A stretch of DNA of 63,078 nucleotides, counting the filler, from Deltaproteobacteria bacterium (lineage in GTDB: Bacteria; JAUYMQ01), in the NCBI GenBank assembly GCA_030698575.1. It is 12 parts of 12 records of this genome, joined end to end, with 100 filler letters (N's around TTAATTAATTAA, not from the genome) between each part and the next. Parts side by side here need not be neighbours in the genome. Positions count along the whole stretch, not along the records: positions 2,648 to 15,246 come from JAUYMQ010000589.1; 11 more parts are not named here. One strand, written 5' to 3'. This document shows positions 2,648 to 43,904 of the stretch, piece by piece. The translations under genes and the position numbers were made by a program. Numbering within the stretch: the stretch's first letter is position 1; each line of letters begins with the position of its first letter. The notes under the pieces are model-generated. The model was given only the letters and a program-made list of their open reading frames with translations. It searched no databases and was not told where the DNA came from.

Positions 2648-2795
2648 GCCGCATTTTCGCCCTATCGGCCGGCTAACAGTGGGCTACTTTGGCATCCCGC
2701 ACGCGGGAGCGCACTGTGAAGCCGATTCTCGTTCCAACCGCCGGCGTCCAGAACTGGCAATCGGAAGTATTTCAAGATGTAGCCGCCGAGGGCCC

Positions 2796-3956
2796 ATGGA
2801 CCAACGGCACCTCCTGACGCTCTGGAACCCGCTCTACGGCCCCAACGCCATGGAGCTGCATCTCGCCGTGTTGCTCGGCAAGATCGCGGAGCATCGCGAA
2901 GGGAAAACAGACGAGAACGATGTCTATGTGTGGTGGGGGAAGGTCAAATCCCAACACCGCGACAAGCCGCTCCCGCATCTCGAGGATATCCGCGCCCTCG
3001 ATAGCGAGCTGGCCGAGAAGGCGAGTGATCCCTCCGAGATCCACCTCTACCTGACAGACTACCGTTCGCTCTACATCGCCGAAGTCGGCGAAATCACGAG
3101 CGATAACATGCTCGCGCAAGATCGTGCGCATGTGCCGGATTACTATGACCGCGGCGATCTGCTGTGCGACTGCTGGTTCCGTCTGTGGGATATCCGGCGA
3201 CTCGTCGGCGACGACCTGGTCTCGGTGGCGTCCGAGCTTCAGCGCCTTCGCAATACGCGACACCACGATCACCCCGTGTCCCTCTACGGAGGCATGGTCG
3301 AGCTCCCCCTCATCGTCACTCGGCCCGATGGCACGCGCTTCTTCGATCTCGAGGCGCGTAATCGGGTCACCGACGGCAAGTACTGGGCGGAATTCGACGC
3401 GGAGCGTGTCGGCATTGGCGCCATGGAGCGCGAGCTGCGCGAGAATCTCTTTGGCGACGAGCAGTGGGCCAATCTCGACCCTGTGGCCCGCACATTCATC
3501 GCCACAGGGGAGAAGATCTTCAGAGACCACCGCGGCGACCCGGGCTTCGACTTTACGCCCGTGATCATCGAGTTCGCGAAGGTCTTTGAGGTCCAGGGCA
3601 ACGCCATCCTCAGCCGCGCGCTCTCGGGCGCCCCGCCCGATCTGCGCCAGGCCAACATTGACGGCAAGACCATTGATTTTGTCAGACAGGGACCCCTGAG
3701 CCTCGGACAGCTCGGCCTACTGCTCGATGGGGATAAACGCCTCGTGGACTATCTCCGCAAGCAGTTGCGTCACGGTGAATGGTTCACCGGGAGTCTTCCG
3801 GCGATCACGACCGCGTTTGCGCAGTTGCGCAACGAGGCTGCCCACACGAAGCGTGTTAGCCGGGAGACCGCGACACAGTGGCGGAACCAGCTACTCGGGA
3901 TCGGGTGCTATGGGGATTTTGGGCATTTGGCGAATGTGAGGAGGGCGGGATGGTGA
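2796..3956 (+). CDS. HP0729-like protein with C-terminal HEPN-type RxxxxH motif (candidate defence RNase)
   Basis: Start MDQRHLLTLWNPLY. WGKVKS, LYLTDY, VPDYY and WF..DIR.LV resemble the HP0729 family as I recall it; C-terminal LRNEAAH. Confidence 0.6.
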   Translation: MDQRHLLTLWNPLYGPNAMELHLAVLLGKIAEHREGKTDENDVYVWWGKVKSQHRDKPLPHLEDIRALDSELAEKASDPSEIHLYLTDYRSLYIAEVGEITSDNMLAQDRAHVPDYYDRGDLLCDCWFRLWDIRRLVGDDLVSVASELQRLRNTRHHDHPVSLYGGMVELPLIVTRPDGTRFFDLEARNRVTDGKYWAEFDAERVGIGAMERELRENLFGDEQWANLDPVARTFIATGEKIFRDHRGDPGFDFTPVIIEFAKVFEVQGNAILSRALSGAPPDLRQANIDGKTIDFVRQGPLSLGQLGLLLDGDKRLVDYLRKQLRHGEWFTGSLPAITTAFAQLRNEAAHTKRVSRETATQWRNQLLGIGCYGDFGHLANVRRAGW

Positions 3957-4065
3957 GACGTGAAATCTCGAGCACAGTTGGCCGCACGCGCTCCTGTCGT
4001 AGGTCAGGGCGTGCTGAGTGGGCATGCTTCGTTCGGATGGCGGATTCTGGCAGGGATGTCTTACC

Positions 4066-4953
4066 ATGACCAAGCTGTGGCGCATTCACCTTCGCCCATC
4101 CTCGGAGACAGGTGTCGATGCGTGTCTATTTTGTACCCGAGAATCCGTTCTTGGTGTGGGCTGGGCCGTTGGCCAAGGTGAACAGGCGCTTGATTGGCAG
4201 ACCTACAGCTCGTTGGCTGCGATCAAGCACGCGGGAGATCGCAGTTGGCGACTTGCGTTAACGCCCCTAAGGACAGGTTTGTCCATAGGAGATCTCTGCT
4301 GGTCGCGCGATCAAAAAGGCATCTACTACCTCGGGCAGGTCACGGGTGACTGGGAATATCGTTCCGGTGAAGCATACCGCCGTGCCGACATAGTAAATGT
4401 TCGTCTCTGTAAATGGGTTGAGGTAGGAACGGTTGAAGAAGTTCCCGGCAAGGTGTTAAGCAGTTTTGTGCCACGGCGAATACTGCAACCCATCAACGAC
4501 GCGACTGCTCTATTCTACTCAGAAATGGTATTCGGACAGAAGACCGGTGCCGAAGTCATTAAGTCGCCCGAGAAGAAGGACGTCTTCGCACTTCTGTCTT
4601 CAGAAGACTGCGAGGATGTCGTCGGGCTTTATCTCCAAAGTCTAGGCTATAGCCTCATCCCGAGTTCCTGCAAACGAAGAGACACCCTGGCGTATGAATA
4701 CGTGTTCAGGCACCGGACCACCGGGCATCGAGCTGTAGCTCAGGTGAAACGGGGCGCGGATGATCTGGTAATTGATGACCTGTTAGGCGTAGCTGATGAC
4801 GTGTTCCTATTCACGACGCATGGCAAGTATCTCGGAGCGCCGACTCCGCGCGTGCATTGTATCGACCGAAGCACGATTGAGGGATTCCTTCGTGCAAACC
4901 CGCAGATTCTCACGCAACGAATCAAGACTTGGGTCCAGGCCGCTGGATTGTAG
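4066..4953 (+). CDS. Putative Mrr-like restriction endonuclease (PD-(D/E)xK, QxK variant)
   Basis: N-terminal GVGW...GDLCW...YYLGQVTGDWEY domain; C-terminal EDVVGLYLQSLGY...YE...AQVK. Visibly AT-richer than neighbours. Confidence 0.6.
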   Translation: MTKLWRIHLRPSSETGVDACLFCTRESVLGVGWAVGQGEQALDWQTYSSLAAIKHAGDRSWRLALTPLRTGLSIGDLCWSRDQKGIYYLGQVTGDWEYRSGEAYRRADIVNVRLCKWVEVGTVEEVPGKVLSSFVPRRILQPINDATALFYSEMVFGQKTGAEVIKSPEKKDVFALLSSEDCEDVVGLYLQSLGYSLIPSSCKRRDTLAYEYVFRHRTTGHRAVAQVKRGADDLVIDDLLGVADDVFLFTTHGKYLGAPTPRVHCIDRSTIEGFLRANPQILTQRIKTWVQAAGL

Positions 4954-6244
4954 ACTCGGGGCTCAGGCACACCTTCACGAATCCGGCCTGCCGTTTCCCA
5001 ACGTTCGAGTCAAGGCTCCGGACCTGCTCGTGTTGCCTCATTACGCGTCTTACTTCCTCTCGGAGGATTCCCACGTAGCGTGCCGGGTCTTCAGCTACAC
5101 TTACCGCTGCTGCGAAGCACGCTTCACGCAGATGGGCACCTGTGAGCCCTTCACACTGGAGGCCAATCTCGGTTAGCTCGCCAGCGTACAACGGCCAAGG
5201 TGAATAGCGCTGAAGAAGGCCAATTCGCTCAGCTTGTCCGGGCCCTGGAAACACGAAGACTCGATCAAATCGCCCCGGTCGATCTAGAAGATTAAGCTCG
5301 AGTTTCGTGGGATCATTCGACGTCGCAATCCACAGCACCGGCTTGCTCGGCTGAAACATCCCGTCGAGCACATTCAAAAAAAACTCGGCCGTTACCACGC
5401 CAGAGTCCAATAGCCGGTCCACGTCCTCCAGCACGACAATCGCGGGCGCGTCAGTCGCCTCGATCTCCTGTACCATCGCCCGAAACGGCGACTCCAGCGC
5501 GCGCGCCGCCGAGCTGCCTTCCACGAGAAACAGAAAACGCCGGCAGTCCGGGTAACGATGCAGCAGGTGCCGCACCATCAACGTCTTGCCGGTCCCCGGC
5601 GCACCCACAAAAAGAACCCCACGCGTCGGCGCGATTCGCAGCTTGGCACACAGCTCGGCACCCCGCCAAAACCGGTCGAGATACGCGAGGAGATCGACCT
5701 TGAATTGATCGGGGAGGATCACGTCGGCCTCCGCAACCGGCGTCAACCCGGTCGGCTTCGCGTCCGCGCCATACACGACCACTTGCTCCCGAAACAGCTC
5801 CGCTCGCTTCGCCTTTAGCAGCGCCGCGAGCCCGAGCGTCGTCGCGAGCGACGAGCCCGCGAGCAATAAGGCCCGCTCAACCTGCCCCGGAAACACCTGC
5901 TCGTTCACGCGCAGGGCGAGGTACTGCTGACCATTTAGTGTCAGCGTGACCATCCCGTGGAAATCATCGATATGCACACCCTCCTCCACGAGTTCGGGAG
6001 CGTGCGCGACGATGGGCTCGGTGCGGCCACCGTTCCGAATCGCCAGGATCCAGCCGAAGAACGGAAGGCCAGGCTCCGCTGTACCGCCGATGCTTCGAAT
6101 GCACGTGATCAGCTCGGCGCCGTTCATCCATCCGCGGATGACCACAGGTTCTTCGGTCCAGCCAAGAGCCGTCGCGGCGGCACGGAGCGTTTCCACCCAG
6201 CGGGGGGCGATATTCGCGTCCCGATACCAGACTCGATGATCCAT
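4922..6244 (-). CDS. AAA+ ATPase (classical AAA clade)
   Basis: Walker A GAPGTGKT, Walker B IVVLEDVD, FLNVLDG, ATSN and second region of homology DRPGRFDR. ATG 6244 chosen because a promoter motif lies just upstream. Confidence 0.9.
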   Translation of the reverse strand: MDHRVWYRDANIAPRWVETLRAAATALGWTEEPVVIRGWMNGAELITCIRSIGGTAEPGLPFFGWILAIRNGGRTEPIVAHAPELVEEGVHIDDFHGMVTLTLNGQQYLALRVNEQVFPGQVERALLLAGSSLATTLGLAALLKAKRAELFREQVVVYGADAKPTGLTPVAEADVILPDQFKVDLLAYLDRFWRGAELCAKLRIAPTRGVLFVGAPGTGKTLMVRHLLHRYPDCRRFLFLVEGSSAARALESPFRAMVQEIEATDAPAIVVLEDVDRLLDSGVVTAEFFLNVLDGMFQPSKPVLWIATSNDPTKLELNLLDRPGRFDRVFVFPGPGQAERIGLLQRYSPWPLYAGELTEIGLQCEGLTGAHLREACFAAAVSVAEDPARYVGILREEVRRVMRQHEQVRSLDSNVGKRQAGFVKVCLSPESTIQRPGPKS

Positions 6245-6255
6245 GAGGAGTCCAT

Positions 6256-6277
6256 AGAATGCCACGAGGATGTGACA
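6256..6277 (-). promoter_or_regulatory. PafBC-type (-26/-10) promoter for the AAA ATPase
   Basis: Minus strand TGTCAC-ATCCTCGTGG-CATTCT, 11 nt before ATG 6244. Confidence 0.6.
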
Positions 6278-6317
6278 GCGCGCGGATTACGCTGCCATCT
6301 AGTGCGCCCTCTAAGGG

Positions 6318-6333
6318 CGCACTCCCGCCGAGC
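6318..6333 (-). repeat. Dispersed intergenic motif (copy A of 3; others at 6760-6776 and 12621-12637)
   Basis: Plus strand cgcactcccgccgagc vs cgcgctctcgccgagc (14/16); adjoins the perfect hairpin AGTGCGCCCT-cta-AGGGCGCACT (6301-6323). Confidence 0.6.
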
Positions 6334-6355
6334 GCGGGCTCTCAGCCCGCGTACA

Positions 6356-6436
6356 AAACACGAAAGCCGGAGAGCATTTGCTCCCCGGCTTCCGATCACG
6401 TAGCGAAACTGGCTACGCGGAGGTCCCTCACGTATG
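6356..6436 (-). ncRNA. Structured element copy 1: anti-tRNA segment + hairpin + terminator-like hairpin
   Basis: Minus strand TGAGGGACCTCCG-CGTAGC-cagtttc-GCTACG-tgatcg-GAAGCCGGGGAGC-aaat-GCTCTCCGGCTTTC-GTGTTTT. G.U pairs form only on the minus strand; near-identical copy at 11199-11280. Confidence 0.6.
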
Positions 6437-6480
6437 GAAACATCGGCTCTTGATTCAGCCGAGTCAATGGGAAGCAGGGG

Positions 6481-6564
6481 TGCTGGTGGTGGGATTCGAA
6501 CCCACAAGGGCTTTCGCCCAGAGATTTGAGGGACCTCTGCGTTTACCGATTTCGCCACACCAGC
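6481..6564 (-). tRNA. tRNA-like gene with Leu body but CUC (Glu) anticodon and C33; CCA not encoded
   Basis: GCTGGTG TG GCG-AAATCGGTAAA-CGC A GAGGT-CCCTCAA-ATCTC T GGGC-GAAA-GCCC TT GTGGG-TTCGAAT-CCCAC CACCAGC A. All stems pair; A73, A15:U48, A20a and the long variable arm are Leu-type. Anticodon at 6530-6528. Confidence 0.9.
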
Positions 6565-6728
6565 ACCTCATGGCTGCGAACCCCGGTAATCCCGAAGGCC
6601 AAGACGCGAGACCCCACACGTGCTGCCGCCCGCCCGAGCACGATGCGAGAACAATGTGAGTGGGAGTGCATCAAACCAACGCTGGAAGAATCACTTCAAC
6701 GCGAAGATTTATCCGTCGGCTGACGCCG

Positions 6729-6777
6729 CGGCTCGGCCACTACACTCGCCCTCAAGGGGCGCGCTCTCGCCGAGCCG
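6729..6777. repeat. Intergenic hairpin containing motif copy B
   Basis: CGGCTCGGC (6729-6737)...GCCGAGCCG (6769-6777) encloses CGCCC-tcaag-GGGCG; 6760-6776 is identical to 12621-12637 (17 nt). Confidence 0.6.
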
Positions 6778-6848
6778 GCCCTGCAGCGCACGGGAAGACG
6801 CCTTTTCGCCGCCCGTCCGTAGTGCTAGGCTAGAGGAGCCGCACCGGC

Positions 6849-6876: not shown

Positions 6877-6996
6877 ATGGACATCGGCCCCGTCATCCGC
6901 ATCATCGAAAACGTCCCCGCCACGCTCCCCATGGAGCGTGTGGCGCATCCCTCTCCAGCGCCGCCTCGCCCCGCGAACGAGCCGGCGCCCAAATGA
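6877..6996 (+). CDS. 39-aa Pro-rich peptide MDIGPVIRIIENVPATLPMERVAHPSPAPPRPANEPAPK (not in ORF track)
   Basis: Directly after the promoter motif; GC3-rich codons; ATGA overlap with the next gene. Confidence 0.65.
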   Translation: MDIGPVIRIIENVPATLPMERVAHPSPAPPRPANEPAPK

Positions 6997-7664
6997 GCGC
7001 GCTGTTTCGCCGATTCCTGGGATTCATGAATCCTCCCCCGCCGCAGCCGGTGCTCGGGCTGCCGGCCGCGGGAGTGCCCGCCCCCGCACTGCCACCACCG
7101 CCTCGCCCGTCCATCCCGTGGCCGCCCGTGGTGGAGTGGCAGAGCGCCGAGGAGCTGGTTGCCTGGCGCGCCTGGCGGTTGCTCACAGTCATGAGCCCGT
7201 CGGGCCCCGAGATCGGGCTGCGGCTCGTGTCCATTTCGGTGCCACGAATCTGGATGGGCCCGGTCGCGCAGACCGATCCACCAACCGTCGAGAGCGAGAC
7301 GCCCAGCGGTATTCATGTATTGAAGGAAGCGATCTGGCGCCAGTGCCGCTGGTCGTTCCTCGAAGACTGCTGGGTGAGCGGTACCGTCGCCCTATCCGGA
7401 CGCGTGATCGAGCACGCTGCCGGCTATCGCGCCGAGCGGGCCGTCATCCGTGACCTGCGCCTGTCCGTCGGCACCCACTTGGCGGTCCGATCTCTCGAAG
7501 AGCTGAGCCGGCTCATTGGTTCCCTGGAACAGCGCTATCAGGTGGCTGTGGACGTAGGCCAGGCTGAACGCGAAGCCGCCGACAAGATGCTCACAAAGGG
7601 CACGACTCCAAAGTTTCCCCGGACTCCGTGGGTCAAACTGGTGCCACCATGGGCGCTGATCTAG
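6993..7664 (+). CDS. Hypothetical protein (AWRAW...SGIH...GTVALSGRVIEH..GYRA family; possible ADP-ribosyltransferase-like fold)
   Basis: 223-aa ORF coupled to the upstream peptide; the fold is an inference from motif spacing only. Confidence 0.65.
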   Translation: MSALFRRFLGFMNPPPPQPVLGLPAAGVPAPALPPPPRPSIPWPPVVEWQSAEELVAWRAWRLLTVMSPSGPEIGLRLVSISVPRIWMGPVAQTDPPTVESETPSGIHVLKEAIWRQCRWSFLEDCWVSGTVALSGRVIEHAAGYRAERAVIRDLRLSVGTHLAVRSLEELSRLIGSLEQRYQVAVDVGQAEREAADKMLTKGTTPKFPRTPWVKLVPPWALI

Positions 7665-7667
7665 CAG

Positions 7668-7689
7668 AGTCACACCCGGGCCTTAGTGT
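7668..7689 (+). promoter_or_regulatory. PafBC-type promoter of the WYL operon (possible autoregulation)
   Basis: AGTCAC-ACCCGGGCCT-TAGTGT, 8 nt before ATG 7698. Confidence 0.65.
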
Positions 7690-7697
7690 TGGTGCTG

Positions 7698-8795
7698 ATG
7701 ACCAAGACCGAGCGCTGGCTCAACCTCCTCGCCTTCCTCCTCGACCACCGCCGGCCCGTGCCGCGCGAGGAGATCCTGAGCCAGGTCGAAGACTACAAGA
7801 CCGACTGGATTGAAGGCTCGGAGCGCAGCCGCGAATCGGTGCGCCGCAAGTTCGAGCGCGACAAGGCCGAGCTCAAAGAACTCGGCGTCGTGATCGAGCC
7901 CCTCAAGGAAAAGATCGTCGCGAATCACTCTGATCAGGAAGTCGAAGCCTATCAACTGAAGCCGCGCGAGTTCTATTTACCATACCTGAAGGTCGTCCCC
8001 CCTCTCCGCTCGCGGAGAGGGGGTCAGGGGGTGAGGCCGGAGGCACGACCCTACTTCCTGAACGAGGTCGCGCTCGCGAGCGACGAGCTGCCCATCCTCC
8101 GCCGCGCCGCCGAGCGCATCGCGGCTCTCACCGAAACGCCCCTCGGCAGCGCGGCTCGCGCAGTCATCCGCAAGCTTTCCTTCGATCTCCCGGAAGCGAA
8201 CGTCGGCGCCGAAGAGCGGGCGTTCCCGGCGCCATCGACGGTGGATCAGCAGTTCGCAATCCTCAGGCAGGCGGTCGAGCAGCGCCGCGCCGTGCAGTGC
8301 CGCTACTACACGATCCGCCGCGACTCCGAAGAGAAGCGCGTGATCGAGCCGTATGGCCTCATGCTCTCATGGGGACACTGGTACTGCGTCGCCCGCGCGC
8401 GCGAACGCGACGCGCTCAGGGTCTTTCGGCTCGACCGAATGAAGAACTGCGCATTGATCGAAGGCGAGAAGGGGGAGTTCGCGGTCCCCAAGAACTTCAG
8501 GATCAGCAGCTACCTGAACCGCGCACCGTGGGAGCTGTCGGACGACAAGCCGGTCACCGCGCGCGTCCGGATCAACTTCCCCCAGTCCCGCTGGGTCATC
8601 GGCGAGCGCCTCGGCAAGGTCGTCAAAGCCGTGACCGACGACGCGGGCAGCGAGTTCGAATTCGAAGTACGTGCCGTGGATGCTTTCGTGCGCTGGCTCC
8701 TGCCGCTCGGCAACCAGGTCGAAGTGCTGTCACCGCCGTCAATCAAGAACCGACTGGAAGAAGCACGGGCGCAGCTCCGCGCCGTCTATCCCTGA
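7698..8795 (+). CDS. WYL-domain transcriptional regulator, PafB-like (HTH-WYL-WCX)
   Basis: TERWLNLLAFLL, RRKFERDKAELKELG, IEPYGL....HWY and RVFRLDR motifs; C-terminal VEVLSP. Confidence 0.9.
   Translation: MTKTERWLNLLAFLLDHRRPVPREEILSQVEDYKTDWIEGSERSRESVRRKFERDKAELKELGVVIEPLKEKIVANHSDQEVEAYQLKPREFYLPYLKVVPPLRSRRGGQGVRPEARPYFLNEVALASDELPILRRAAERIAALTETPLGSAARAVIRKLSFDLPEANVGAEERAFPAPSTVDQQFAILRQAVEQRRAVQCRYYTIRRDSEEKRVIEPYGLMLSWGHWYCVARARERDALRVFRLDRMKNCALIEGEKGEFAVPKNFRISSYLNRAPWELSDDKPVTARVRINFPQSRWVIGERLGKVVKAVTDDAGSEFEFEVRAVDAFVRWLLPLGNQVEVLSPPSIKNRLEEARAQLRAVYP
7996..8036 (+). repeat. REP-like palindrome inserted in frame in the PafB-like gene
   Basis: CCCCCTCTCCGC-tc-GCGGAGAGGGGG-tcAGGGGGTGAGG; translates as PPLRSRRGGQGVR. 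Confidence 0.8.
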
Positions 8796-9731
8796 ATGCC
8801 TCAAACCGCCCAGGCCCAAGCGCCGCGCCTGATCGAGCTGATCGCCTGGCTGTCACAGAGCGACAGCCCGAAAACCATCACGTATAAGGCAGCGGCCAAG
8901 CAGCTCGGTGTTTCGGAGAAGATGCTGCGAGAAGACCTCGAGGTGCTGCTCGAGCTGACGGCCGAGCATAAAGACTGGCTCGCGAGTCTGCGCGTGGCGC
9001 TCGTGGCCGAGGAATTCACGGTGCTGAGCCGCGGCGCATTCCTCCGGCCGATCCACCTCACCGAAGAAGAAGGCCTCGCCCTGCTCCTCGGCCTCACCGG
9101 CGTGCGCGGCGGCAGCGCGGTCGCCGCCAAGTTCACGAACCACGGGCGAGGGAAGCGCTCGCCCGAATCGGTGGAGTCGGCCTTCGCCATCGGCGCCGCG
9201 CCGAGCGCCGAGCTCGATGGCCTCTTGGCCGTGGCGCGGCGGGCGCGCGACGAGAAGCGGAAACTCGAGATTCTCTACTGCGGCTCGGCGGGCGAGCCCT
9301 CTCGGCGCACGATTCACGTGCACCAGATCGTGGAGCACGCCGGCCGCTGGTACGTCATCGCCTGGTGTGAGACCTGCTGCGACATGCGTCACTTCCGCGC
9401 CGATCGGCTTCTCGAGGCTCGGCTGCTGGTCCAGGACTTCCGGCCGCAGGTGCTGTTTCGGCCCATCGGCAATCCACAGGAGCTGCTGCAGACCGACGAG
9501 ACCGTCACTGCGCAGGTCGCGTTCAGCAAAAAGATCGCGCGCTGGCTCGAAGAGAAGTACCCGAATGGTCGGACGAGCCCTGATGGGCGGTACGTGGTGA
9601 AGTTTCAGGTCGCCGATCCCGCCTGGTTCGTGCGCGAGATCTTGCAGTACGGCGCGCAGGCTGAGGTATTGTCCCCGGACAGTTTCCGTGAGGCCGTGCG
9701 GAAGATGGTCAGCGTTGGTGAGGTGAATTGA
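8796..9731 (+). CDS. WYL-domain transcriptional regulator, PafC-like
   Basis: RLIELIAWL, AAKQLGVS..LREDL, RPIHLTEEEGLALL, GRWYVIAWC...RHFRADR and LQYGAQAEVLSP motifs. Confidence 0.9.
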   Translation: MPQTAQAQAPRLIELIAWLSQSDSPKTITYKAAAKQLGVSEKMLREDLEVLLELTAEHKDWLASLRVALVAEEFTVLSRGAFLRPIHLTEEEGLALLLGLTGVRGGSAVAAKFTNHGRGKRSPESVESAFAIGAAPSAELDGLLAVARRARDEKRKLEILYCGSAGEPSRRTIHVHQIVEHAGRWYVIAWCETCCDMRHFRADRLLEARLLVQDFRPQVLFRPIGNPQELLQTDETVTAQVAFSKKIARWLEEKYPNGRTSPDGRYVVKFQVADPAWFVREILQYGAQAEVLSPDSFREAVRKMVSVGEVN

Positions 9732-11191
9732 TGACCCTCCGCCTCTCGAAATCCAAGTTCGTCGCCGGCACGCAGTGCCACAAGCTGCTCTGGTGGAAAG
9801 TCCACGACCCTGATGCTGAAGAGCTGCAACCCGACAAGGTGCTCCAGGACCGTTTCGATCAGGGAGCCCAGGTCGGCGAGCTCGCGCGTGGCCGCTTCCC
9901 TGGTGGAACGTTGATCGATCTGCCGTACTACGCGACTGACGAGCGGATCAGACTCACCCAACAAGCCATCAAGGCCGGATCCCCGGCGATCTTCGAGGCG
10001 AGTTTTGTCGCCGATAACACCTACGTCGCCGTGGATATTCTCGCCCGCGAGCACGACGCCTTCCGTCTCATCGAAGTGAAATCGTCCTCGTCGCAGAAAG
10101 ACGAGCACATCCTCGACGCCGCCGTCCAGGTGCACGTGGTCAAGCAGAGCGGTATCGACGTGCGTGCCGCGGAGATCATGCACCTCAGCAAGGAGTTCCG
10201 GCACCCCGATGAGGGCGACCTGTTCGCGCGTAGCGATGTGACCGAAAGCGCCTTCGGGCTGCTGCACACCATCCCGGGGGAGATCAAGGCGCAGCTCGCG
10301 ATGCTCAGCGGGCCGCTCCCCGACGCGCCGATCGGCATGCACTGCCACGAGCCGCGGGCCTGCCCGTTCATGGAGCGCTGCTGGCCGCAGTCGCGCGACC
10401 ACATCATGCGGCTGTACAACGTCGGGCCCAAGCGCGGCTGCGACTACATGACGACCGGCGTCCACACGATTCCCGACATCCCGCCGACGCAGAAGCTGCC
10501 CGACGCCGCCAAGCGGCAGATCCGCGCGATGAAAGAGCAGCGGATCATCGTCGAGGCCGGTCTCAAGAAAGCGCTGGAGCCGTTCAGCGGCCGCCTCGGC
10601 TTCCTCGACTTCGAGACCATCTCGCGCGCGGTCCCGGTCTGGCCGGGTATGGCCCCCTGGGAGCAGGCCGCGGCGCAATTCAGCTATCACGAAGCCCAGC
10701 CCGACGGGTCCTACACCCACGCCGCCTTTCTCGCCGAAGGCTCGCATGACGCGCGTCCCGAGCTTGCCAAGGCGATGATCGCAGCCACCGCGGGCGCCGA
10801 GCGGGTCGTGACGTACACGGCGTTCGAGAAGACGCGCATCCGGGGGCTACAGAAGTGCGTGCCAGCGCTCGAGACTGAGCTGAAGCAGCTCGAGGGCAAG
10901 CTCATCGACCTGCATCCCATTATGCGGGACTACGTATACCACCCCGACTTCCTGGGGAGCTTCAGCCTGAAGTACGTCCTCACGCCGATGGTGCCGGAGC
11001 TGACGTACAGCGACCTCGTCATCGTGGACGGCCTGGTCGCGAGCGTCGAAATCGCCCGGCTGCTGTTCGTGGCTCAGAAGATCTCGCCGGAAGAGAGGGA
11101 TCGTGTGAGGCAGGATCTGTTGAACTACTGCGAGCGGGATACGTGGGCGATGGTGAAGCTGTTGGAGCGGCTGCGGGAGTTGGCCAACTAG
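9731..11191 (+). CDS. DUF2779-type protein: Cas4/RecB-like PD-(D/E)xK nuclease fused to an RNase H/DnaQ-like domain
   Basis: LSKSKF...QC, DIL..LIEVKSS, CHEPRACPFMERC, FLDFET, FSLKYVL and YCERD motifs; TGATG coupling to the PafC-like gene. Confidence 0.85.
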   Translation: MTLRLSKSKFVAGTQCHKLLWWKVHDPDAEELQPDKVLQDRFDQGAQVGELARGRFPGGTLIDLPYYATDERIRLTQQAIKAGSPAIFEASFVADNTYVAVDILAREHDAFRLIEVKSSSSQKDEHILDAAVQVHVVKQSGIDVRAAEIMHLSKEFRHPDEGDLFARSDVTESAFGLLHTIPGEIKAQLAMLSGPLPDAPIGMHCHEPRACPFMERCWPQSRDHIMRLYNVGPKRGCDYMTTGVHTIPDIPPTQKLPDAAKRQIRAMKEQRIIVEAGLKKALEPFSGRLGFLDFETISRAVPVWPGMAPWEQAAAQFSYHEAQPDGSYTHAAFLAEGSHDARPELAKAMIAATAGAERVVTYTAFEKTRIRGLQKCVPALETELKQLEGKLIDLHPIMRDYVYHPDFLGSFSLKYVLTPMVPELTYSDLVIVDGLVASVEIARLLFVAQKISPEERDRVRQDLLNYCERDTWAMVKLLERLRELAN

Positions 11192-11198
11192 GGTGGGG

Positions 11199-11280
11199 AA
11201 ACACGAAAGCCGGAGAGCTTTGCTCCCCGGCTTTCGTTTTGGCGTAGCGAAACTGGCTACGCGGAGACCTGTCAAGTATC
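11199..11280 (-). ncRNA. Structured element copy 2 (may also act as plus-strand terminator of the WYL operon)
   Basis: Blocks of 20, 15 and 24 nt are identical to 6356-6422; the variable segment reads GAGAC-CTGTCAA instead of GAGGT-CCCTCAC on the plus strand. Confidence 0.6.
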
Positions 11281-11333
11281 GTCGCGGACTGGACCCTATC
11301 GGACGACGGCGGGAGCTATATCGTCAAGCTGCG

Positions 11334-12323: not shown

Positions 12324-12589
12324 TCACCGCCTTCTACGCCGTGGACCGCCTCGAGGGCAAGATCGCCGTGCTCGTCGCCGACGACGGCACGACCGTCGAG
12401 GTCGATCGCTCACGCGTGCCGGCACGCGTGCGCGAAGGGACGGTGCTTCGTGTGCCAGTTGCAGGGAGCGAGCCGGACTGGGCCGGCGCCGAGATCGATC
12501 AGAACGAGCAGCAGCGCCGGATGAAGCAGATGCGGTGGACGCTGGACGAGATGAAGCGGACCGATCCGGGCGGAGGTATCGAGCTGTGA
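12320..12589 (+). CDS. DUF3006-like protein
   Basis: AVDRLEGKIAVL...P..VREG.VL; ATGA overlap with the ComEC-like gene, a usual neighbour. Confidence 0.8.
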   Translation: MITAFYAVDRLEGKIAVLVADDGTTVEVDRSRVPARVREGTVLRVPVAGSEPDWAGAEIDQNEQQRRMKQMRWTLDEMKRTDPGGGIEL

Positions 12590-12620
12590 GAACGTGGCCC
12601 GAGTAGGTTGACCCCGGGCA

Positions 12621-12637
12621 CGCGCTCTCGCCGAGCC
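12621..12637 (-). repeat. Intergenic motif copy C
   Basis: cgcgctctcgccgagcc identical to 6760-6776, between two convergent genes. Confidence 0.6.
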
Positions 12638-12652
12638 TCGCAATCCTCGGTC

Positions 12653-14563
12653 CTAGTGCGTCACCACCCGATCGGGCTCGGAGGCAGCGCACGTGACGCA
12701 ACGGCCGGACTCCGGCACGAAATGCTGAGCACAGGCGGTCTTGCCGCACACGGAACAGGCGCTCACCTCGTCCGCTGCGAAGACCGCCTCCGGCTCTGCC
12801 ACGCACGTCGCGCGGTGTTGTTCGCAGACCAGGCGGCCCGAACCGTCGGCCCGGCGCAAATGCCTGGAGCACTGAATCTGTTCGTCCACGGCGCACACGG
12901 CCTGGTGCGCGGTGCAGACCGATCGGCCGCAGCTCGCGCACTCCACCACCTCGTCCACGCCCACGGGCTCGTTGGTGCCCCCTTCGCAATAGCGCAGACA
13001 CGCCGAGCACAATCGTCGGCTCCCCTTGGGCGCGTCGGCCTTGCTCCGCTCCGCATGACGGTTGCAGACGATCCGGCCGCAACTGCCGCACGCTTCGAGA
13101 CACGCGGTACACGCCGGATGCTCGCCCTCCCCGTCCGCGCAGACGCCTTCGTGCGCCGTGCAGTGCGCCATGCGGCACGACGAGCACACGCGCGCGTGCT
13201 GCTCGCAGGCGGGCTGATCGTCCACGCGGCAGTAGGCGATACCGTGATCGGCGCAGAAGTCCGAGGCGCACACCGAGCAGCGGGCGGAGCACGCGTCACA
13301 GACGCAATGTCCGTCCCTTCGTTCCCCCTCTCCCGAAGGGAGAGGGGGAGAGGGGGTGAGGACGCAGACCACCAGCTCGGCCGGCGAACGGCCGCACTTC
13401 GGGCATGCGAGAATCCACGCCGCCGATCCAGCGATCGGCCGCTGCGCCGCAAACCGGGCGCGAAGCCCTCGCTTCGAGCGGATTTCCCACTCGACACGCT
13501 GCATCAGGACCTGCGCCTGGACGATCTGGAGCGGATGCACGATCGCCATCACCTGATGGCGACGCATCTCCTCCGCCCGCCGCCGCTCGTGCAACGCGGT
13601 GATGGTGCGCACGTCGTCGGGATCGGTCTTGTCCGCCAGGACTGACGCGAAGTAGCGATCGAGCCGCTCCAGCTCCACGGCGACTCCCTGCTCCGCGCCC
13701 ACCTGCCGCGCGGCCACCCGCTCGGCGCTCTGTTCTCGCAGATCGCTGAGCAGCAGCTGGAGCATTTCCGCGGGTGGGCGCGCGGGAACCGCAACGGCAT
13801 CGGGAACGTCATCCGAATCGGCCGGCTTGCTGCGCCGCGCCTCCAGATCTGCGAACTGCGCGGTCACCTGGTCGTCCGCGCGGGCGCCGGTGGCGAGATC
13901 GATGACGGCGCTCTCGATCACGGTTTCCTCGACCACCGCGCCGGCGCGCAGCACGACGCGCGCGAGCAGCCGCCCCACCGTATGCGTCGCCAGTTGGGAT
14001 TTGCGGCGCCGGACAGTGGCGTCGCGGACGGGGACGGGCAGGTCGAGATCGTGCGTCGTGCGTCGTACGTCGTGCGTGGTGCTCTTGGCTGACCCCCGGC
14101 GCCTGGCTGCCTTGGCTGACTTGGCTGACCCCGGGCGCAAGCCCGGGGTTTTCGGGAGGGTGATCATGCCGAGTGACAGCCGGCCCGCCCGGGTGCGGAT
14201 GGCCTCGAGCAGGTGCCCTAGGAACGGGCTGCCGAGCACCGCCATTTCGGCGTCGGGATCGCGCTCCAGGGCCTCGAGCGACAGGGCCACGCGCACCGTC
14301 GCGCGCCCCGAGAAGTGCGCGCGCTCTGAGAGCGGCAGCTTCATGTCGTACAGATCGGCGCCGCGCGGCATCAGCTTCACTTTGGCGAGCTTGCAGTACC
14401 GCTCCAACAGCGGCCAGATACGCGCGTCGGTCTTCACCTCCTGGACGGTTTTGCGCGCCCGTTTGGTCCTCACCCCCTGACCCGCTCGGCCTTGGGTCCT
14501 CACCCCCTTTCCCCCTCTCCCTCCGGGAGAGGGGGGACGATGGACCTTGCGTCGGGCCGTCAC
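12653..14563 (-). CDS. Helicase-partner protein (YqhG-like coiled region) with tandem CxxC/CxxH Zn-finger repeats
   Basis: GTG 14563 overlaps the helicase stop (GTGA); ELERLDRYF coiled segment; about 230 C-terminal residues of repeated CxxC...CxxH. Confidence 0.75.
   Translation of the reverse strand: MTARRKVHRPPSPGGRGGKGVRTQGRAGQGVRTKRARKTVQEVKTDARIWPLLERYCKLAKVKLMPRGADLYDMKLPLSERAHFSGRATVRVALSLEALERDPDAEMAVLGSPFLGHLLEAIRTRAGRLSLGMITLPKTPGLRPGSAKSAKAARRRGSAKSTTHDVRRTTHDLDLPVPVRDATVRRRKSQLATHTVGRLLARVVLRAGAVVEETVIESAVIDLATGARADDQVTAQFADLEARRSKPADSDDVPDAVAVPARPPAEMLQLLLSDLREQSAERVAARQVGAEQGVAVELERLDRYFASVLADKTDPDDVRTITALHERRRAEEMRRHQVMAIVHPLQIVQAQVLMQRVEWEIRSKRGLRARFAAQRPIAGSAAWILACPKCGRSPAELVVCVLTPSPPLPSGEGERRDGHCVCDACSARCSVCASDFCADHGIAYCRVDDQPACEQHARVCSSCRMAHCTAHEGVCADGEGEHPACTACLEACGSCGRIVCNRHAERSKADAPKGSRRLCSACLRYCEGGTNEPVGVDEVVECASCGRSVCTAHQAVCAVDEQIQCSRHLRRADGSGRLVCEQHRATCVAEPEAVFAADEVSACSVCGKTACAQHFVPESGRCVTCAASEPDRVVTH
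13323..13363 (+). repeat. REP-like palindrome in frame within the Cys-rich gene
   Basis: TCCCCCTCTCCC-gaa-GGGAGAGGGGGA-gAGGGGGTGAGGAC. Confidence 0.8.
14049..14149. repeat. Heptamer array, 9-mer repeats and GC palindrome inside a CDS
   Basis: TCGTRCG x4 (14049-14076), CTTGGCTGA-like repeats, ACCCCGGGC-gcaa-GCCCGGGGT (14128-14149). Confidence 0.75.
14466..14536 (-). repeat. One full and one partial REP-like copy at the 5' end of the Cys-rich gene
   Basis: GTCCTCACCCCCT at 14466 and 14496, then CCCCCTCTCCC-tcc-GGGAGAGGGGG. Confidence 0.8.
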
Positions 14564-15246
14564 GCGGACTCCACGGAGATGTCGACCAGTGCCAGCGGGA
14601 GGCGCTCGACCTGCGCGACGAGCGTGATCGCGCGGCCCGCGCTGGTCAAACCGGTGAGCCGCACGAGGGCGCCGTATTCGGAATGACTGCCCGCGGAGGG
14701 GGGCTGCGTGGTGGTGACGCCGCCGATAGGCTCGATCGATTCGAGCGCTTCGAGCAGCTCGGTGACCGTGATGCGGACGCGCTGCCGCTTGGCCTCCCAT
14801 CCCGCGGCCTTCACGACGTGGCTCGTGCCCAGACCGAGCCGCAGCCGCGCGGGAACAGAGAGCGTATCGAACCGCCGCTCGAGCCGTGTGGCGTTGTCGT
14901 CCGGCGCGATCGCCGAGTTCAGCTGCTCCTGTTCCCGGCCGGCCGCACTGCTCCGCTCGAGATCGAGGCCCAACGTTTCCACGCGGCGCTCGAAGTCTTC
15001 GTCGTTCTCCGCCGCCAGCCACTCGTCCGCGAGCCGCACCTCGAACTTCTGCGCGCCGCCGAACTCGCCCAGGATCATGTCCAGCTCGCCCACGACCAGC
15101 TCGAACAGTTTGATCTTCTTGTCGAGCAATTGGAGGATGTACGACTCGATGGTGCCGGCCGCGGCCAGGTTCACGATGTGGACCTCGCGCTTTTGCCCGA
15201 TGCGGTGCACCCTCCCGATGCGCTGCTCGATCACCATCGGATTCCA
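14560..15246 (-). CDS. SNF2-family helicase, YqhH-like (C-terminal fragment)
   Basis: WNPMVIEQRIGRVHRIGQ (motif VI) and TIESYIL..L.KKI.LFE.VVGELD.IL. Confidence 0.88.
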   Translation of the reverse strand, partial: WNPMVIEQRIGRVHRIGQKREVHIVNLAAAGTIESYILQLLDKKIKLFELVVGELDMILGEFGGAQKFEVRLADEWLAAENDEDFERRVETLGLDLERSSAAGREQEQLNSAIAPDDNATRLERRFDTLSVPARLRLGLGTSHVVKAAGWEAKRQRVRITVTELLEALESIEPIGGVTTTQPPSAGSHSEYGALVRLTGLTSAGRAITLVAQVERLPLALVDISVESA

Positions 15247-15381
15247 NNNNNNNNNNNNNNNNNNNNNNNNNNNNNNNNNNNNNNNNNNNNTTAATTAATT
15301 AANNNNNNNNNNNNNNNNNNNNNNNNNNNNNNNNNNNNNNNNNNNNGGCCCTCCTCGCAATGACATAGCCCCGCCGGCTAT

Positions 15382-19445: not shown

Positions 19446-19628
19446 GGGTCTGTTCAATNNNNNNNNNNNNNNNNNNNNNNNNNNNNNNNNNNNNNNNNNN
19501 NNTTAATTAATTAANNNNNNNNNNNNNNNNNNNNNNNNNNNNNNNNNNNNNNNNNNNNGTCGCCCGCTTGTCTTCCGGCATAGTTGATCACATCTGCCAC
19601 GGCACGGCCGCCTTCGCGACCGGCGTTT

Positions 19629-21742: not shown

Positions 21743-22243
21743 CTACAAGCTTGCCGGCTCGTCGACGGCCAGTTCGAGGTTCACCTCAATGACTTTGCTC
21801 CCGGGTGCTTCCACCTCCCTGAGGGACGGCGGAAATCGGGGGTGCCAGGCGCGGAGCTTCTTTACGCCGGGGTTGACGCCTTCGATCTGCCACCGCCCAT
21901 CCGACCCGACAACCGTAAAGGGCCCCGGCGCGACAAAGAACGTTGCGCTCACGGCTGGAGCGTCGAGCATGAAGACCCTGTGGCTGCCTTGCTCGACCGT
22001 GTCGATCGAAGCTTCGTCCCCGGGCGATACGCGCTTCAGGAAATTGAGTTCCGGGCAGGAAACGATATGCGGCTCGCTGGTCTCGTTTCTGACAATGACC
22101 TTGCCGCCGAGGCCCACGGCACCGTTCATCGGCTCCATGCGCGGACCCAAGCGAGAGGCATCAAGATTGATCCGGAGCGTTCCGGCCGGCGGCGGTTCGC
22201 CCTCGAGGTAGACGACCGCAAATCCGGGGCGCGTATAGTCGAC
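21743..22243 (-). CDS. Paralogous carboxypeptidase-regulatory-like protein (5' truncated)
   Basis: Frame open to contig end (VDYTRPGFAVVYLEG...); DGRWQIEGV.PG...AWHPR. Confidence 0.7.
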   Translation of the reverse strand, partial: VDYTRPGFAVVYLEGEPPPAGTLRINLDASRLGPRMEPMNGAVGLGGKVIVRNETSEPHIVSCPELNFLKRVSPGDEASIDTVEQGSHRVFMLDAPAVSATFFVAPGPFTVVGSDGRWQIEGVNPGVKKLRAWHPRFPPSLREVEAPGSKVIEVNLELAVDEPASL

Positions 22244-22343
22244 NNNNNNNNNNNNNNNNNNNNNNNNNNNNNNNNNNNNNNNNNNNNTTAATTAATTAAN
22301 NNNNNNNNNNNNNNNNNNNNNNNNNNNNNNNNNNNNNNNNNNN

Positions 22344-22917
22344 CGCCCGTGCGCGCGAGCTGAAGCGCCGCGTCGAAGGCCGAGCGCATCTCCGGCTGGA
22401 ACTCGAGGTGGAAGACCGACTTGCTGATGATGGGCTTCTCGCACTCGGGGAGCGGGGCTGCGTCCTCTTCAGGTCCAACGGCGCCGCCCTCGGCGGCGTT
22501 GGCCGGAGCGCCGGCGCCGGCCGGGCTTGCCGGGGATCCACCGAGCGTGTGCCGGAAGAGTGCGTCCAGGCCCGACCCCTCTCCCGTTTCGTCGACATAC
22601 GCCCCATCCGCTCCTCCGGCAACGACCTCGCCTTCGGCCTCGGCGCGCGCTTTCCGGGAGGCCTCGGCGACGGCTTCGCTCCCGGGCGTCGACCCCGGCG
22701 GTTTCTCCTCCGGCCGGTCGCCCTTCTTTGCGGTGATCGCCCGCCCGTTCGCCGCGTCAAGCGGCGGGGCGGACGCAGCGCCTTCGGTGGTCCGGGCGAT
22801 GGAGGGCGTCGAGGGAGGCGGCACGGGGGAACTTTCACGGCCAAGGACGTAGAAGGCCAGGAACGCGACAAGACCCGCGAGTACCAACAGAAGGGGACCC
22901 CTGTCCGGGGTGCTCAT
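22344..22917 (-). CDS. Hypothetical membrane-anchored protein (3' truncated)
   Basis: N-terminal TM helix followed by a low-complexity linker. Confidence 0.55.
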
Positions 22918-24157: not shown

Positions 24158-24886
24158 TGGAGATCCAGGGGCAACGCGATATCGTCGAGACTGACGTTCT
24201 CAATGCCGATGTTATCCGCCGGATTGGTCGCGTTCCGCCGCTCGGAGAGGACGGAGTCGACGATGAATCCGGCCGAGTTACCGCTGGCGAAGTTCCGGAC
24301 GAAGGCGTTGCGGCTGGAGTTCACCAGAAAACCGGGGTCGTTCCCCAGAGCGATGTTCTGCTCCAGCACCCATCCGTCGAAGCTCAGCTCGACGAGAAAT
24401 CCCTCATCCTTGCAATTCTGCGCCACGTTCGAACCCACATAGCCGCCGCCGGGGGAGGTCAGCGGCGTCTGGAGGTTCTGTGTGAGGGCGTAGCAGGTCC
24501 CGTCGCAGCTCGTGACCATGTTCTCGACGATCGTGAACATGCCGGAGGCCCTCACGACGACGCCGGCAATGCCGGGCGGTCGTGGGGGCAGAGGAAATTT
24601 TGGCTGGGTGGACCGCGAGACACAGTCGATGGTGTTGTCCCTCACCGAGGCGCTCTTGCAACTGTCGCGCAGGATCACGCCCGAGCCGCGGTTCCCAACG
24701 AAGGTTCCTGCCTGCACGAGCAGGTTCGAGCCGCCCGTGCAAGAGACCCCGTCCGACTCGCTGTCCTCAACTGCCGCGCGAACGATGCGCGTGTTGTCTC
24801 CCGCGCTCCGGATGCCGGTCCCGCAGAAGCGCGCCTTGGTGCGGTCGACAAATGCCGCGTTCCCCCCGGAGATGTCGACGCCGATG
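24154..24886 (-). CDS. Right-handed beta-helix protein (5' truncated)
   Basis: NxA.GN..GF repeats; ATGA overlap with the downstream paralog. Confidence 0.65.
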
Positions 24887-24986
24887 NNNNNNNNNNNNNN
24901 NNNNNNNNNNNNNNNNNNNNNNNNNNNNNNTTAATTAATTAANNNNNNNNNNNNNNNNNNNNNNNNNNNNNNNNNNNNNNNNNNNN

Positions 24987-25585
24987 CCGAAGATGAGCTG
25001 GGAGGTGCGGGAGGCCTGGACCCGCGTGCCGTTCAGCCAGGTCTCGATGGCCAGATCCGACGGATCGACCGCGGCCGCGATGGCCGGACCCACGCAAGCG
25101 AAGGTATCGAAACCCTTCGCCCGCGACCACTGGCCGTCTTTGGCCTGCAGGTCCCGCGCCGTGACGTCGTTCAGGCACGTGTAGCCGAAGATGTGCCTGC
25201 GCGCATCCTCCGGCGAAACGCGGCTGGCCCGCCGCCCGATCACGATGGCCAGTTCTCCCTCGTAATCGATCCTTGCCGAAGCCTGCGGTAGGAGGATTTC
25301 CGCCTCAGGCCCGACGATGGCCGAGGGAGGCTTCAGGAAGAGAAGCGGCTCGGAGGGAAGATCGGCGCCCATCTCGGCGGCGTGGTCGCGGTAGTTGAGG
25401 CCGATGGCGACGATCTTGGTGGGGCAGGCGGGCGCGAGCAGCGTCACGTGGTCGAGGTGCGATTCATCGCCTGTCGGCTGGCGCCCCTCCCAGGGGGGTG
25501 CCGGTCCGAGGCAGTGTACCCGGTTGTCGCGCACTTCACCCCAGACCGCTTGGTCCCGGGCAACCTGGTAGCGAACGAAGTGCAT
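24987..25585 (-). CDS. Fumarylacetoacetate hydrolase family protein (3' truncated)
   Basis: KIVAIGLNY.DHA.E, DYEGEL, NDVTARDLQ and AKGFDTF motifs. Confidence 0.93.
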
Positions 25586-28635: not shown

Positions 28636-28735
28636 NNNNNNNNNNNNNNNNNNNNNNNNNNNNNNNNNNNNNNNNNNNNTTAATTAATTAANNNNNNNNN
28701 NNNNNNNNNNNNNNNNNNNNNNNNNNNNNNNNNNN

Positions 28736-28904
28736 CGTAGGCTGACGACATGCCGTTCTTGTTCTTGTAGAGCCAGTTTCCGCCCACCTCGTCGCTCTTC
28801 TCGAAGCAGTCGAAGGGGATGCCCCGATCCTTGAGCGCCTTGATGATCGTGATTCCGGACGAGCCCGCCCCTATCACGCAGACCTTGGGATAGTTCGGTG
28901 CCAT
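28736..28904 (-). CDS. Flavin-containing monooxygenase (3' truncated)
   Basis: VIGAGSSG and FEKSD.VGGNW...SSAY motifs. Confidence 0.8.
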
Positions 28905-43250: not shown

Positions 43251-43672
43251 ATGCTTCCGGACCCGCTTCATCCGGCGGTCGTTCACCTGCCGCTGGCCCT
43301 CGCGGCGCTCCTGCCTGTTTTCGCGCTGCTGGCGGTTGCCGCCATTCACGCCCGGCGCCTGCCCGTCCGCGCCTGGGCCGCCATCCCGATTCTCGCGGCC
43401 CTCATGGCGGGGGGCGGCTGGCTGGCCCTTGAGACGGGCGAGCACGAGGAGGATCGCGTGGAGGACGTCGTGGCCGAGCGATACATCGAGGAACACGAGG
43501 AGCACGCCGAGGTCTTCACCGTCCTGGCTGCAGCTCTTGCCGCCATCTCCCTGGGCGGCTTGATCCCCGGCCGTCCGGGAAACCTGGGGCGCGTGGCCGC
43601 GGCGGCGCTGTCAGTCGTCACGCTCGGCTTCGCGCTCGCCGTCGGGCACTCCGGCGGTGAGCTGGTCTACCG
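43251..43672 (+). CDS. DUF2231-like membrane protein (3' truncated)
   Basis: PLHPAVVHLP, HEEHAE and GHSGGELVY motifs. Confidence 0.75.
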
Positions 43673-43904
43673 NNNNNNNNNNNNNNNNNNNNNNNNNNNN
43701 NNNNNNNNNNNNNNNNTTAATTAATTAANNNNNNNNNNNNNNNNNNNNNNNNNNNNNNNNNNNNNNNNNNNNCGGTCCGAAAGGGCTGATCGCAATTACC
43801 CCCTGCGCCCGCAGATTTCCTATCGGAAAGGCCGGGTGCGCCCTTGAGGGACTGCGAGGGACTGCAACCGGAGGGTTCCGGCCGGGGGGTTCAGGGCAGC
43901 GGGA

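Follow-up and report, generated by a model that had tools for sequence, protein, structure and literature searches.

A tRNA-antisense element with a variable anticodon-matching address: a probable orphan copy and its relatives in Gemmatimonadales genomes

The T-box, found in the 5' leaders of aminoacyl-tRNA synthetase and amino-acid genes, pairs with three to four anticodon bases and with the NCCA end of a tRNA and switches a terminator. In E. coli, the tRNA trailer RNA 3'ETS-leuZ is a sponge that pairs with other small RNAs and not with its own tRNA. CreA acts through Cascade and not by direct antisense pairing, and we know of no type I or type VIII toxin-antitoxin system in which the toxin is a tRNA. 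According to excerpts of PMC10097628 and PMC9458426, type VIII systems (CreTA) have an RNA toxin, and excerpts of PMC5389517 give the allo-tRNAs 8/4 or 9/3 acceptor/T stems. The element described here occurs twice in a stretch of 63,078 nucleotides from one fragmented metagenome-assembled genome (MAG; assembly GCA_030698575.1). This whole stretch is called the window, and the search of the source genome covered these 63 kb. Sequence comparison places the second copy (copy 2) in a family of elements from soil Gemmatimonadales that are antisense to part of a tRNA.

That positions 11199-11280 directly repeat 6356-6436 at a distance of about 4843 bp had been proposed from the sequence alone, and pairwise alignment agrees: three blocks, of 20 nt (AAACACGAAAGCCGGAGAGC), 15 nt and 24 nt (CGTAGCGAAACTGGCTACGCGGAG), recur unchanged at an offset of 4843-4844 bp. 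The variable segment is also as had been described, GAG-GTCCC-TCA in copy 1 and GAG-ACCTG-TCA in copy 2, and the two otherwise differ in one loop base and a short linker. With up to three mismatches allowed, the window has exactly two matches to the 23-mer core, and none of 100 shuffles has any. Both copies, which lie on one contig (about 2665-15242), are recovered by a covariance model (R1) built from 16 copies of the element; copy 2 is one of the 16, so its score is partly obtained by construction, and the independent support is the pairwise alignment. R1 found no third copy in the window. Its next best hit (14.1 bits, E 0.03, at 50540) belongs to a candidate at 50540-50655, about 14 bits, that was dismissed because its sequence is unlike a copy. 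The parts of the two copies are as follows.

6349 to 6442, minus strand: element copy 1, the cognate partner of the adjacent tRNA (cmsearch with R1, 91.8 bits).
6416 to 6433, minus strand: address of copy 1, complementary to the anticodon arm of the adjacent tRNA.
6361 to 6394, minus strand: intrinsic terminator of copy 1, a 15-pair stem followed by UGUUUUGU, called on this strand by a consensus scan.
11192 to 11286, minus strand: element copy 2, GUC-type (cmsearch with R1, 90.6 bits, model positions 1-93).
11260 to 11277, minus strand: address of copy 2, reading CGCGGAGACCTGTCAAGT on the plus strand, the mirror of an anticodon arm GAGAC-CUGUCAA (anticodon GUC).
11243 to 11263, minus strand: small hairpin of copy 2, GCGUAGC-CAGUUUC-GCUACGC, antisense of the tRNA D-arm region.
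11204 to 11236, no strand assigned: terminator-type hairpin of copy 2, which begins 13 nt past the stop codon of a DUF2779 gene and folds on both strands.

The element as a whole is about 90 nt long on the tRNA-sense strand. At its 5' end is the address; the small hairpin (GCGUAGC/GCUACGY) follows, and an A-rich linker leads to the terminator hairpin (GCCGGGGAGC/GCUCUCCGGC). Copy 1 sits 45 nt downstream of the sole tRNA of the window, on the minus strand, and the match between the two that had been noticed earlier is confirmed: 11 nt of the anticodon arm (GAGGUCCCUCA) are the reverse complement of the copy 1 segment on the minus strand. The anticodon loop of this tRNA, CCCUCAA, gives the anticodon CUC with C33. 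Besides copy 1, the complete module consists of three parts.

6566 to 6750, minus strand: conserved leader of about 170 nt, 5' of the tRNA (alignment of 10 leaders).
6478 to 6565, minus strand: class II tRNA with a long variable arm, a 7/5 cloverleaf and A73 (ARAGORN; Rfam RF00005, 55.9 bits against a gathering threshold of 29).
6439 to 6467, minus strand: tRNA trailer made of TTGACT, 17 nt with a hairpin, and GATGTT, a possible promoter of the element.

Relatives were sought in one reference-genome scan with an exact 21-mer from the small hairpin; with an exact match required, divergent relatives are missed, and since copies were counted in loci and not in whole genomes, the totals per genome are lower bounds. 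The scan gave 14 loci (L001-L014), with one exact match each, in 14 different Gemmatimonadales/Gemmatimonadota MAGs. R1 added five copies within these loci, which brings the total to 21 with the two of the window. This comparison ties the element to a tRNA, as in 10 of the 21 copies, copy 1 among them, a Leu-like tRNA of class II precedes the element by about 45 nt on its strand, and in all 10 of these modules the variable segment fits the adjacent tRNA. ARAGORN calls nine of the 10 tRNAs, the exception being the CUC-type tRNA of L010, which has a structured 38-nt insertion in its T-loop (about 1880-1920), possibly an intron-like insert or a disruption. A divergent module, L014b, has no small hairpin, yet 17 nt perfectly complementary to its own tRNA are present, as is the terminator.

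Covariation was counted in an alignment (A3) of 10 tRNA-element modules, each from a different assembly. Positions 22-40 of the tRNA and the 5' segment of the element form a long-range helix of 18 pairs; nine of these vary on both sides and 93.3% of the cells are paired, a figure that falls to 40-47% when the partner is slid by one to three columns. Significance for the whole structure was judged against 500 shuffles: in four of five measures none of them reaches the observed value, and in the fifth, further pair types, 12 do. The cloverleaf pairs are kept at 97% across the 10 homologues, with all seven acceptor pairs formed, the five T-stem pairs at 98% and the anticodon stem at 100%, three of its five pairs covarying. 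By this comparative alignment the cloverleaf and the long-range duplex are both conserved; therefore, the 5' strand of the anticodon stem has two conserved partners.

The strand of the structured RNA can be read from its wobble pairs. The sequence-only reading had pointed to a G.U pair in the terminator stem and to a G.U/G-C change at the base of the small hairpin, and both are general in the 16 copies, with one terminator pair being G.U in 11 and the hairpin base G.U in eight and G-C in eight. These G.U pairs would be A-C mismatches on the other strand, so that comparison assigns the structured RNA to the tRNA-sense (minus) strand.

Predicted folds agree with the alignment. The minimum free energy structure from the tRNA through the terminator pairs 25-40 nt of the tRNA (about nt 3 to 40) with the element in all 10 modules, and this joint fold gains 12-34 kcal/mol over separate folding of the tRNA and the remainder. 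In the module of the window, the joint fold has -105.2 kcal/mol (z-score -8.1) and the separate folds have -93.2. At the DNA level, the 5' half of the tRNA and the element form an inverted repeat of 38-40 bp whose arms are about 110 bp apart. It had been suggested that the element is a constant scaffold that carries a variable specificity segment. The division into constant and variable parts is upheld by the covariation, but the scaffold is not an independent framework: given that the fold pairs tRNA nt ~3 to 40, from the 5' strand of the acceptor stem over the D-arm to the 5' strand of the anticodon stem and its loop, it is the antisense of the acceptor/D-arm part just as the address is the antisense of the anticodon arm.

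The tRNAs of the 10 modules carry the anticodons CUC (four), CAC (two), CGC (two), UUC (one) and GUC (one) on a body that is otherwise nearly constant, with A73, a long variable arm and canonical D- and T-loops in every one. The names given by ARAGORN (Glu, Val, Ala, Asp) vary by genome, and such naming by anticodon alone is probably wrong. Among the best 25 blastn matches to phage records, 20 are annotated as tRNA-Leu and five are unannotated, with weak E-values. Leucyl-tRNA synthetase does not read the anticodon, the tRNA-Leu identity rules being those of E. coli; excerpts of PMC11415595 echo this independence from the anticodon. On these resemblances the module tRNAs would be charged with leucine. 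The anticodons implied by all 21 addresses are of the form NNC (GUC six, CAC six, CUC four, CGC three, UUC one and UGC one), and A37 follows in 20 of them, L012 having U there. With such anticodons followed by A37, the codons read would be GNN codons, those for Glu, Asp, Val or Ala. These are frequent codons in the seven genes of the contig, where GAG ranks second, GCG fourth, GTG ninth and GAC eleventh.

The trailer between tRNA and element has a recurrent form. TTGACT, 17-18 nt and GAT(G/A/T)TT are present in 14 of the 21 copies and end 2-6 nt before the address, and the hairpin between TTGACT and GATGTT carries compensatory changes. From its sequence, the trailer resembles a promoter that could produce a separate RNA of about 80 nt. 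At the other end of the module, the leader holds CGCGUGUGGGGUCUCGCG at 6590-6610 (minus strand), like a frozen anti-address of the CAC type, at the same place as in L001, L004 and L009. This segment does not covary with the tRNA, except that in L003 it is an exact 11-nt complement of the module's own anticodon arm.

The partner that had been predicted for copy 2 was a Leu-bodied tRNA with the anticodon GUC. The kind does exist, as L009 has one (arm GUGAC-CUGUCAC-GUCAC) beside its own element, the address of copy 2 is one base from that of this element, and among the 10 known tRNAs it is the L009 tRNA that forms the best duplex with copy 2 (-25.2 kcal/mol). With the tRNA of the window itself, copy 2 reaches -10.0 kcal/mol, against -25.0 for copy 1. 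As had also been stated, the partner is absent from the 63-kb window, which contains no second class II tRNA, no matching arm and no further D-arm motif. The additional idea that such a tRNA is a guide found no supporting evidence.

No tRNA or tRNA remnant adjoins copy 2, the start of a metallo-beta-lactamase (MBL)-fold gene filling that space, and the TTGACT-17-GATGTT trailer was not found there. Because it has neither a tRNA nor the promoter-like trailer, copy 2 is most probably an orphan, left as the antisense half of a second module that has decayed. In the family as a whole, 11 of the 21 copies are without an intact tRNA, four of them having lost the 5' half of the tRNA and seven having no tRNA, and five of the six GUC-type elements are orphans.

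The partial deletions have a common form. In L004b (L004 644-900), L007, L009b (L009 2450-2706) and L013 the tRNA has independently lost exactly its 5' half, with the leader fused to the anticodon stem's 3' strand and the 3' half, trailer and element kept. In L008, three GUC-type elements in the same orientation lie within 1.1 kb (1791-2926) with no tRNA, forming an orphan array.

Our preferred explanation, to which we would give a probability of about 0.6, is that the antisense element is a safety catch, or antitoxin-like partner, of a Leu-type tRNA and that copy 2 is the relic of a decayed module. A tRNA with a Leu body and a non-Leu anticodon would put leucine at very common GNN codons and may therefore be toxic. 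The element, if expressed, would pair first with the open anticodon loop and then unzip the anticodon stem and the D-arm. This pairing could take place in cis, within a read-through precursor, or in trans, through a short RNA from the trailer promoter, and by unfolding or masking the tRNA it would inactivate it or expose it to double-strand RNases. The pair would then act like an RNA toxin and an RNA antitoxin, and copy 2 and other orphan elements would be antidotes that were left over or stand alone. A bolder proposal, tentative and on balance doubtful, is that the modules are a new class of RNA-RNA toxin-antitoxin or abortive-infection systems, with a Leu-accepting tRNA redirected to one of the commonest GNN codons as the toxin and an antisense RNA that unzips it as the antitoxin. 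Anticodon and address would diversify jointly into orthogonal pairs, in the manner of immunity specificities, and orphan copies would provide standing immunity against other specificities.

Several observations weigh against the safety-catch explanation. The proposed -10 sequence of the trailer (GATGTT) is weak and a consensus scan called no promoter there. The same kind of scan called the copy 2 hairpin as a terminator on neither strand, even though strong hairpins fold on both, and a putative minus-strand RNA from copy 2 would lie antisense to the MBL gene in its 5' region. The Leu identity is one of resemblance, judged in a comparison set without a genuine tRNA-Leu of this clade, and the E-values of the phage matches are 3e-5 at best and mostly 0.06-0.8. 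Four of the 10 tRNAs, including that of the window, have C33 in place of U33 and are possibly poor decoders, non-U33 being known in other natural mistranslating tRNAs according to excerpts of PMC11415595. The loci were picked by an exact match to the small hairpin, which makes the invariance of that block partly a matter of construction. Finally, template switching at the DNA level could keep a 40-bp inverted repeat matched, and the loss of a single arm, as in the four 5'-half deletions, would also be expected from the instability of a palindrome.

The alternative that survives best is that copy 2 is active and yields an antisense RNA that acts in trans on a GUC-type class II tRNA encoded at another place in the genome, the partner that the sequence-only reading had predicted. 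We consider this possible and would bet against it. The address, small hairpin and terminator hairpin of copy 2 are all intact, the address is a single base off that of the element beside the L009 GUC tRNA, copy 2 is orthogonal to the window tRNA by the duplex energies given above, and the search covered 63 kb of a fragmented MAG. However, copy 2 has no trailer of the kind found in 14 of the 21 copies, the MBL gene starts at the place where a tRNA would be expected, the GUC-type elements are orphans in five of six cases, and a second class II tRNA or D-arm motif is lacking in the window.

Another explanation is that the module is a processing cassette, in which a double-strand RNase frees tRNA halves or an anticodon-derived guide RNA for an effector, a form of the guide-tRNA idea. 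The predicted near-perfect duplex of 25-40 bp in all 10 modules is long enough for RNase III, and the neighbours of the window locus are of defence type, with PDC-S02 (E 2e-93), WYL regulators and a RecB-like nuclease. Nevertheless, no conserved protein partner adjoins the module, and the full cloverleaf, canonical T-loop, D-loop GG and A73 have all been kept, which argues for an intact tRNA as the product. We regard this explanation as unlikely.

A DNA-level explanation was also considered, in which the module is a quasi-palindrome, for instance one that serves in recombination or replication, whose arms stay matched through template-switch gene conversion, with an element RNA that only terminates. 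The long inverted repeat with its spacing of about 110 bp would fit, as would the repeated deletion of the tRNA 5'-half arm at four loci and the weak reverse-strand R1 matches on the tRNAs themselves. The differences inside the duplex speak otherwise. Three of the five, in L002, L011 and L003, have a U of the tRNA opposite a G of the element and are thus U.G pairs in the tRNA-sense RNA; the other two, in L001 and L009a, are true mismatches, so that the wobble argument stands at three against two and this too counts against the safety-catch explanation. In L002 and L011, the tRNA pair C31-G39 has become U-A inside its own stem, whereas the element has kept its G, a change that would be tolerated at the RNA level and that homogenisation of DNA would not yield. 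In addition, the 3' strand of the anticodon stem covaries too, which only an RNA cloverleaf explains, and a terminator with its U-tract follows on the same strand. These points make the quasi-palindrome quite improbable.

Lastly, a generic bidirectional terminator or REP-like (repetitive extragenic palindrome) repeat with a randomly drifting segment, the outcome that the sequence-only reading had itself named as fatal to its proposal, is hardly credible: copy 2 does stand exactly at a gene end with a hairpin that folds on both strands, and a true REP-like family does flank the module, but there are two copies in 63 kb and one to three per related locus, and the variable segment follows the adjacent tRNA in 10 of 10 modules.

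That the two copies bracket a stretch of 4.8 kb had been noted earlier; a mobile segment between recent duplicates is not supported. Their scaffolds are 0.81 identical to each other, while copy 2 is 0.92 identical to L003 and copy 1 is 0.87 identical to L004b; since each is closer to a copy in another genome, they are not a fresh duplication around such a segment. A reading of the repeats as att sites of a genomic island was rejected as well, because there is no integrase between them, because the repeat is an antisense mirror of the tRNA 5' half and not a duplicated tRNA 3' end, and because the two window copies are not each other's closest relatives.

The neighbourhood of the two copies looks like a defence island, judging from the predicted genes, which encode a PDC-S02 homologue, an AAA ATPase, an HP0729-like Pua/HEPN protein, two WYL/WCX proteins, a DUF2779 nuclease and an MBL-fold protein.

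2679 to 3956, plus strand: HP0729-like Pua/HEPN gene.
4018 to 4953, plus strand: PADLOC PDC-S02 homologue (E 2e-93).
4922 to 6265, minus strand: AAA ATPase gene.
6877 to 6996, plus strand: open reading frame (ORF) of 39 amino acids.
6993 to 7664, plus strand: ORF of 223 amino acids, proline-rich.
7686 to 9731, plus strand: two WYL/WCX proteins, the second with a PafC-type helix-turn-helix.
9728 to 11191, plus strand: DUF2779/RecB-like nuclease gene (Pfam PF11074, E 4e-29), whose stop codon abuts copy 2.

The PDC-S02 and AAA ATPase genes overlap tail to tail and the HP0729-like gene adjoins them, a candidate defence cluster just downstream of copy 1. The 39-amino-acid ORF overlaps the proline-rich one (ATGA) upstream of the WYL pair; for both, no Pfam, NCBIfam or PADLOC family was found, and no tblastn homologue in the 14 loci. 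The WYL/WCX proteins are a PafBC-like pair in an operon with the DUF2779 nuclease. As the copy 2 hairpin folds on both strands, it could also act as the terminator of the DUF2779 gene. The same junction of DUF2779 and element is present in L011 and L014, and short remnants of the DUF2779 C terminus lie near the elements of L012 and L008.

When 11 proteins of the window were compared with the 14 loci by tblastn, only the DUF2779 gene and two ORFs at 12324-15022 matched, and the Pfam content around the loci is heterogeneous, with genes unrelated to those of the window and to each other. On these grounds a dedicated protein partner was rejected, and the differing neighbourhoods imply that the module is self-contained.

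Direct repeats of the REP-like family mentioned above, in which an invariant GCCGAG stands between the hairpins GCGCCCTnTAAGGGCGC and GCGGGCTCTCAGCCCGC, lie on either side of the module, and the family recurs beside elements in L012 (1880-1950), L003 and L009. Its copies in the window are at four places.

6300 to 6348: REP-like copy.
6751 to 6790: REP-like copy.
12612 to 12639: REP-like copy.
36171 to 36198: REP-like copy.

The window consists of separate contigs joined by N runs around TTAATTAATTAA linkers, and distances across the joins have no meaning. These artificial linkers are the largest "repeat family" of the window.

2544-2664, 15243-15363, 19455-19575, 22240-22360, 24883-25003 and 28632-28752: artificial joins (N runs and linker).
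43669-43789, 47677-47797, 50842-50962, 53941-54061 and about 59690-59800: further artificial joins.

If the safety-catch explanation is true, some bacteria would keep tRNAs built to mistranslate very common codons and would control them by a dedicated RNA and not by a protein. This would be a natural case of direct antisense control of a tRNA, and in an addiction or defence module the tRNA might be the partner that is toxic. The co-varying anticodon/address pairs would be a ready set of orthogonal tRNA switches, and they make testable the long-standing question of why cells retain tRNAs whose anticodons do not match their bodies.

The Rfam comparison took in the whole window at gathering thresholds and the two copies at E<=10; only the tRNA was found, and Rfam 15 has no family of this kind. 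The window tRNA had no blastn match in E. coli genomes and the 421-nt module none in plasmids. The literature searched, which included excerpts of PMC5389517, PMC11415595 and PMC7609411, gave no account of a tRNA whose antisense partner co-varies with it. The anatomy of the module appears to be new, and its function we infer.

Of the known systems, the natural mistranslating tRNAs are close to the tRNA half of the module. The allo-tRNAs (excerpts of PMC5389517) and the tRNAs of the tRNAProX type (excerpts of PMC10404621 and PMC11415595) also have recognisable bodies, for example of class II, with foreign anticodons. In the same partial texts, natural mistranslating tRNAs are found in soil bacteria, sometimes near toxin-antitoxin genes and with many decayed copies. 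An identity with the allo-tRNAs was rejected, since the module tRNAs are 7/5. The words "antisense" and "complementary" are absent from the available text of PMC5389517, as is "antisense" from that of the reviews on mistranslating tRNAs, and no dedicated antisense partner is described in these texts.

The predicted precursor, a long stem that closes a multiloop with the T-arm, is reminiscent of Y RNA and YrlA, and a Deinococcus Y RNA match covers the variable arm and T-arm at 23.9 bits (E 0.05), against a gathering threshold of 80 bits. The module tRNAs differ from Y RNA in that a complete cloverleaf, with acceptor and anticodon stems, is conserved, and a Ro/TROVE gene was not seen among the scanned neighbours. 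With 3'ETS-leuZ, the element shares its position as a functional base-pairing RNA in a tRNA trailer; unlike it, the element covaries with the anticodon.

Type I and type VIII toxin-antitoxin systems offer the likeness of a short, terminator-ended RNA that lies beside, and is complementary to, a potentially harmful product. Antitoxin-like copies that stand as orphans, and loci that are in some cases in a variable or defence-island context, extend the likeness. The difference is that here the target is a structured, stable RNA and not an mRNA. The signs of a toxin-antitoxin module are circumstantial: the antisense anatomy, the orphan antisense copies and the recurrent loss of the tRNA 5' half.

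The T-box is the nearest parallel to the way in which the element would recognise its target, as in both an RNA reads a tRNA through anticodon pairing, with a pairing segment that follows the specificity of the tRNA while the rest is constant. A reading of the element as a T-box (RF00230) or other attenuator was nonetheless rejected, because no Rfam match covers either copy at the gathering threshold or at E<=10 and because the downstream genes are not conserved. The element also has no antiterminator alternative, it lies 3' of the tRNA's own gene, and it pairs with about 18-40 nt that include strands of the stems. In conclusion, should the safety-catch explanation be right, the pairing would be a third natural base-pairing readout of tRNA, after codons and T-boxes.

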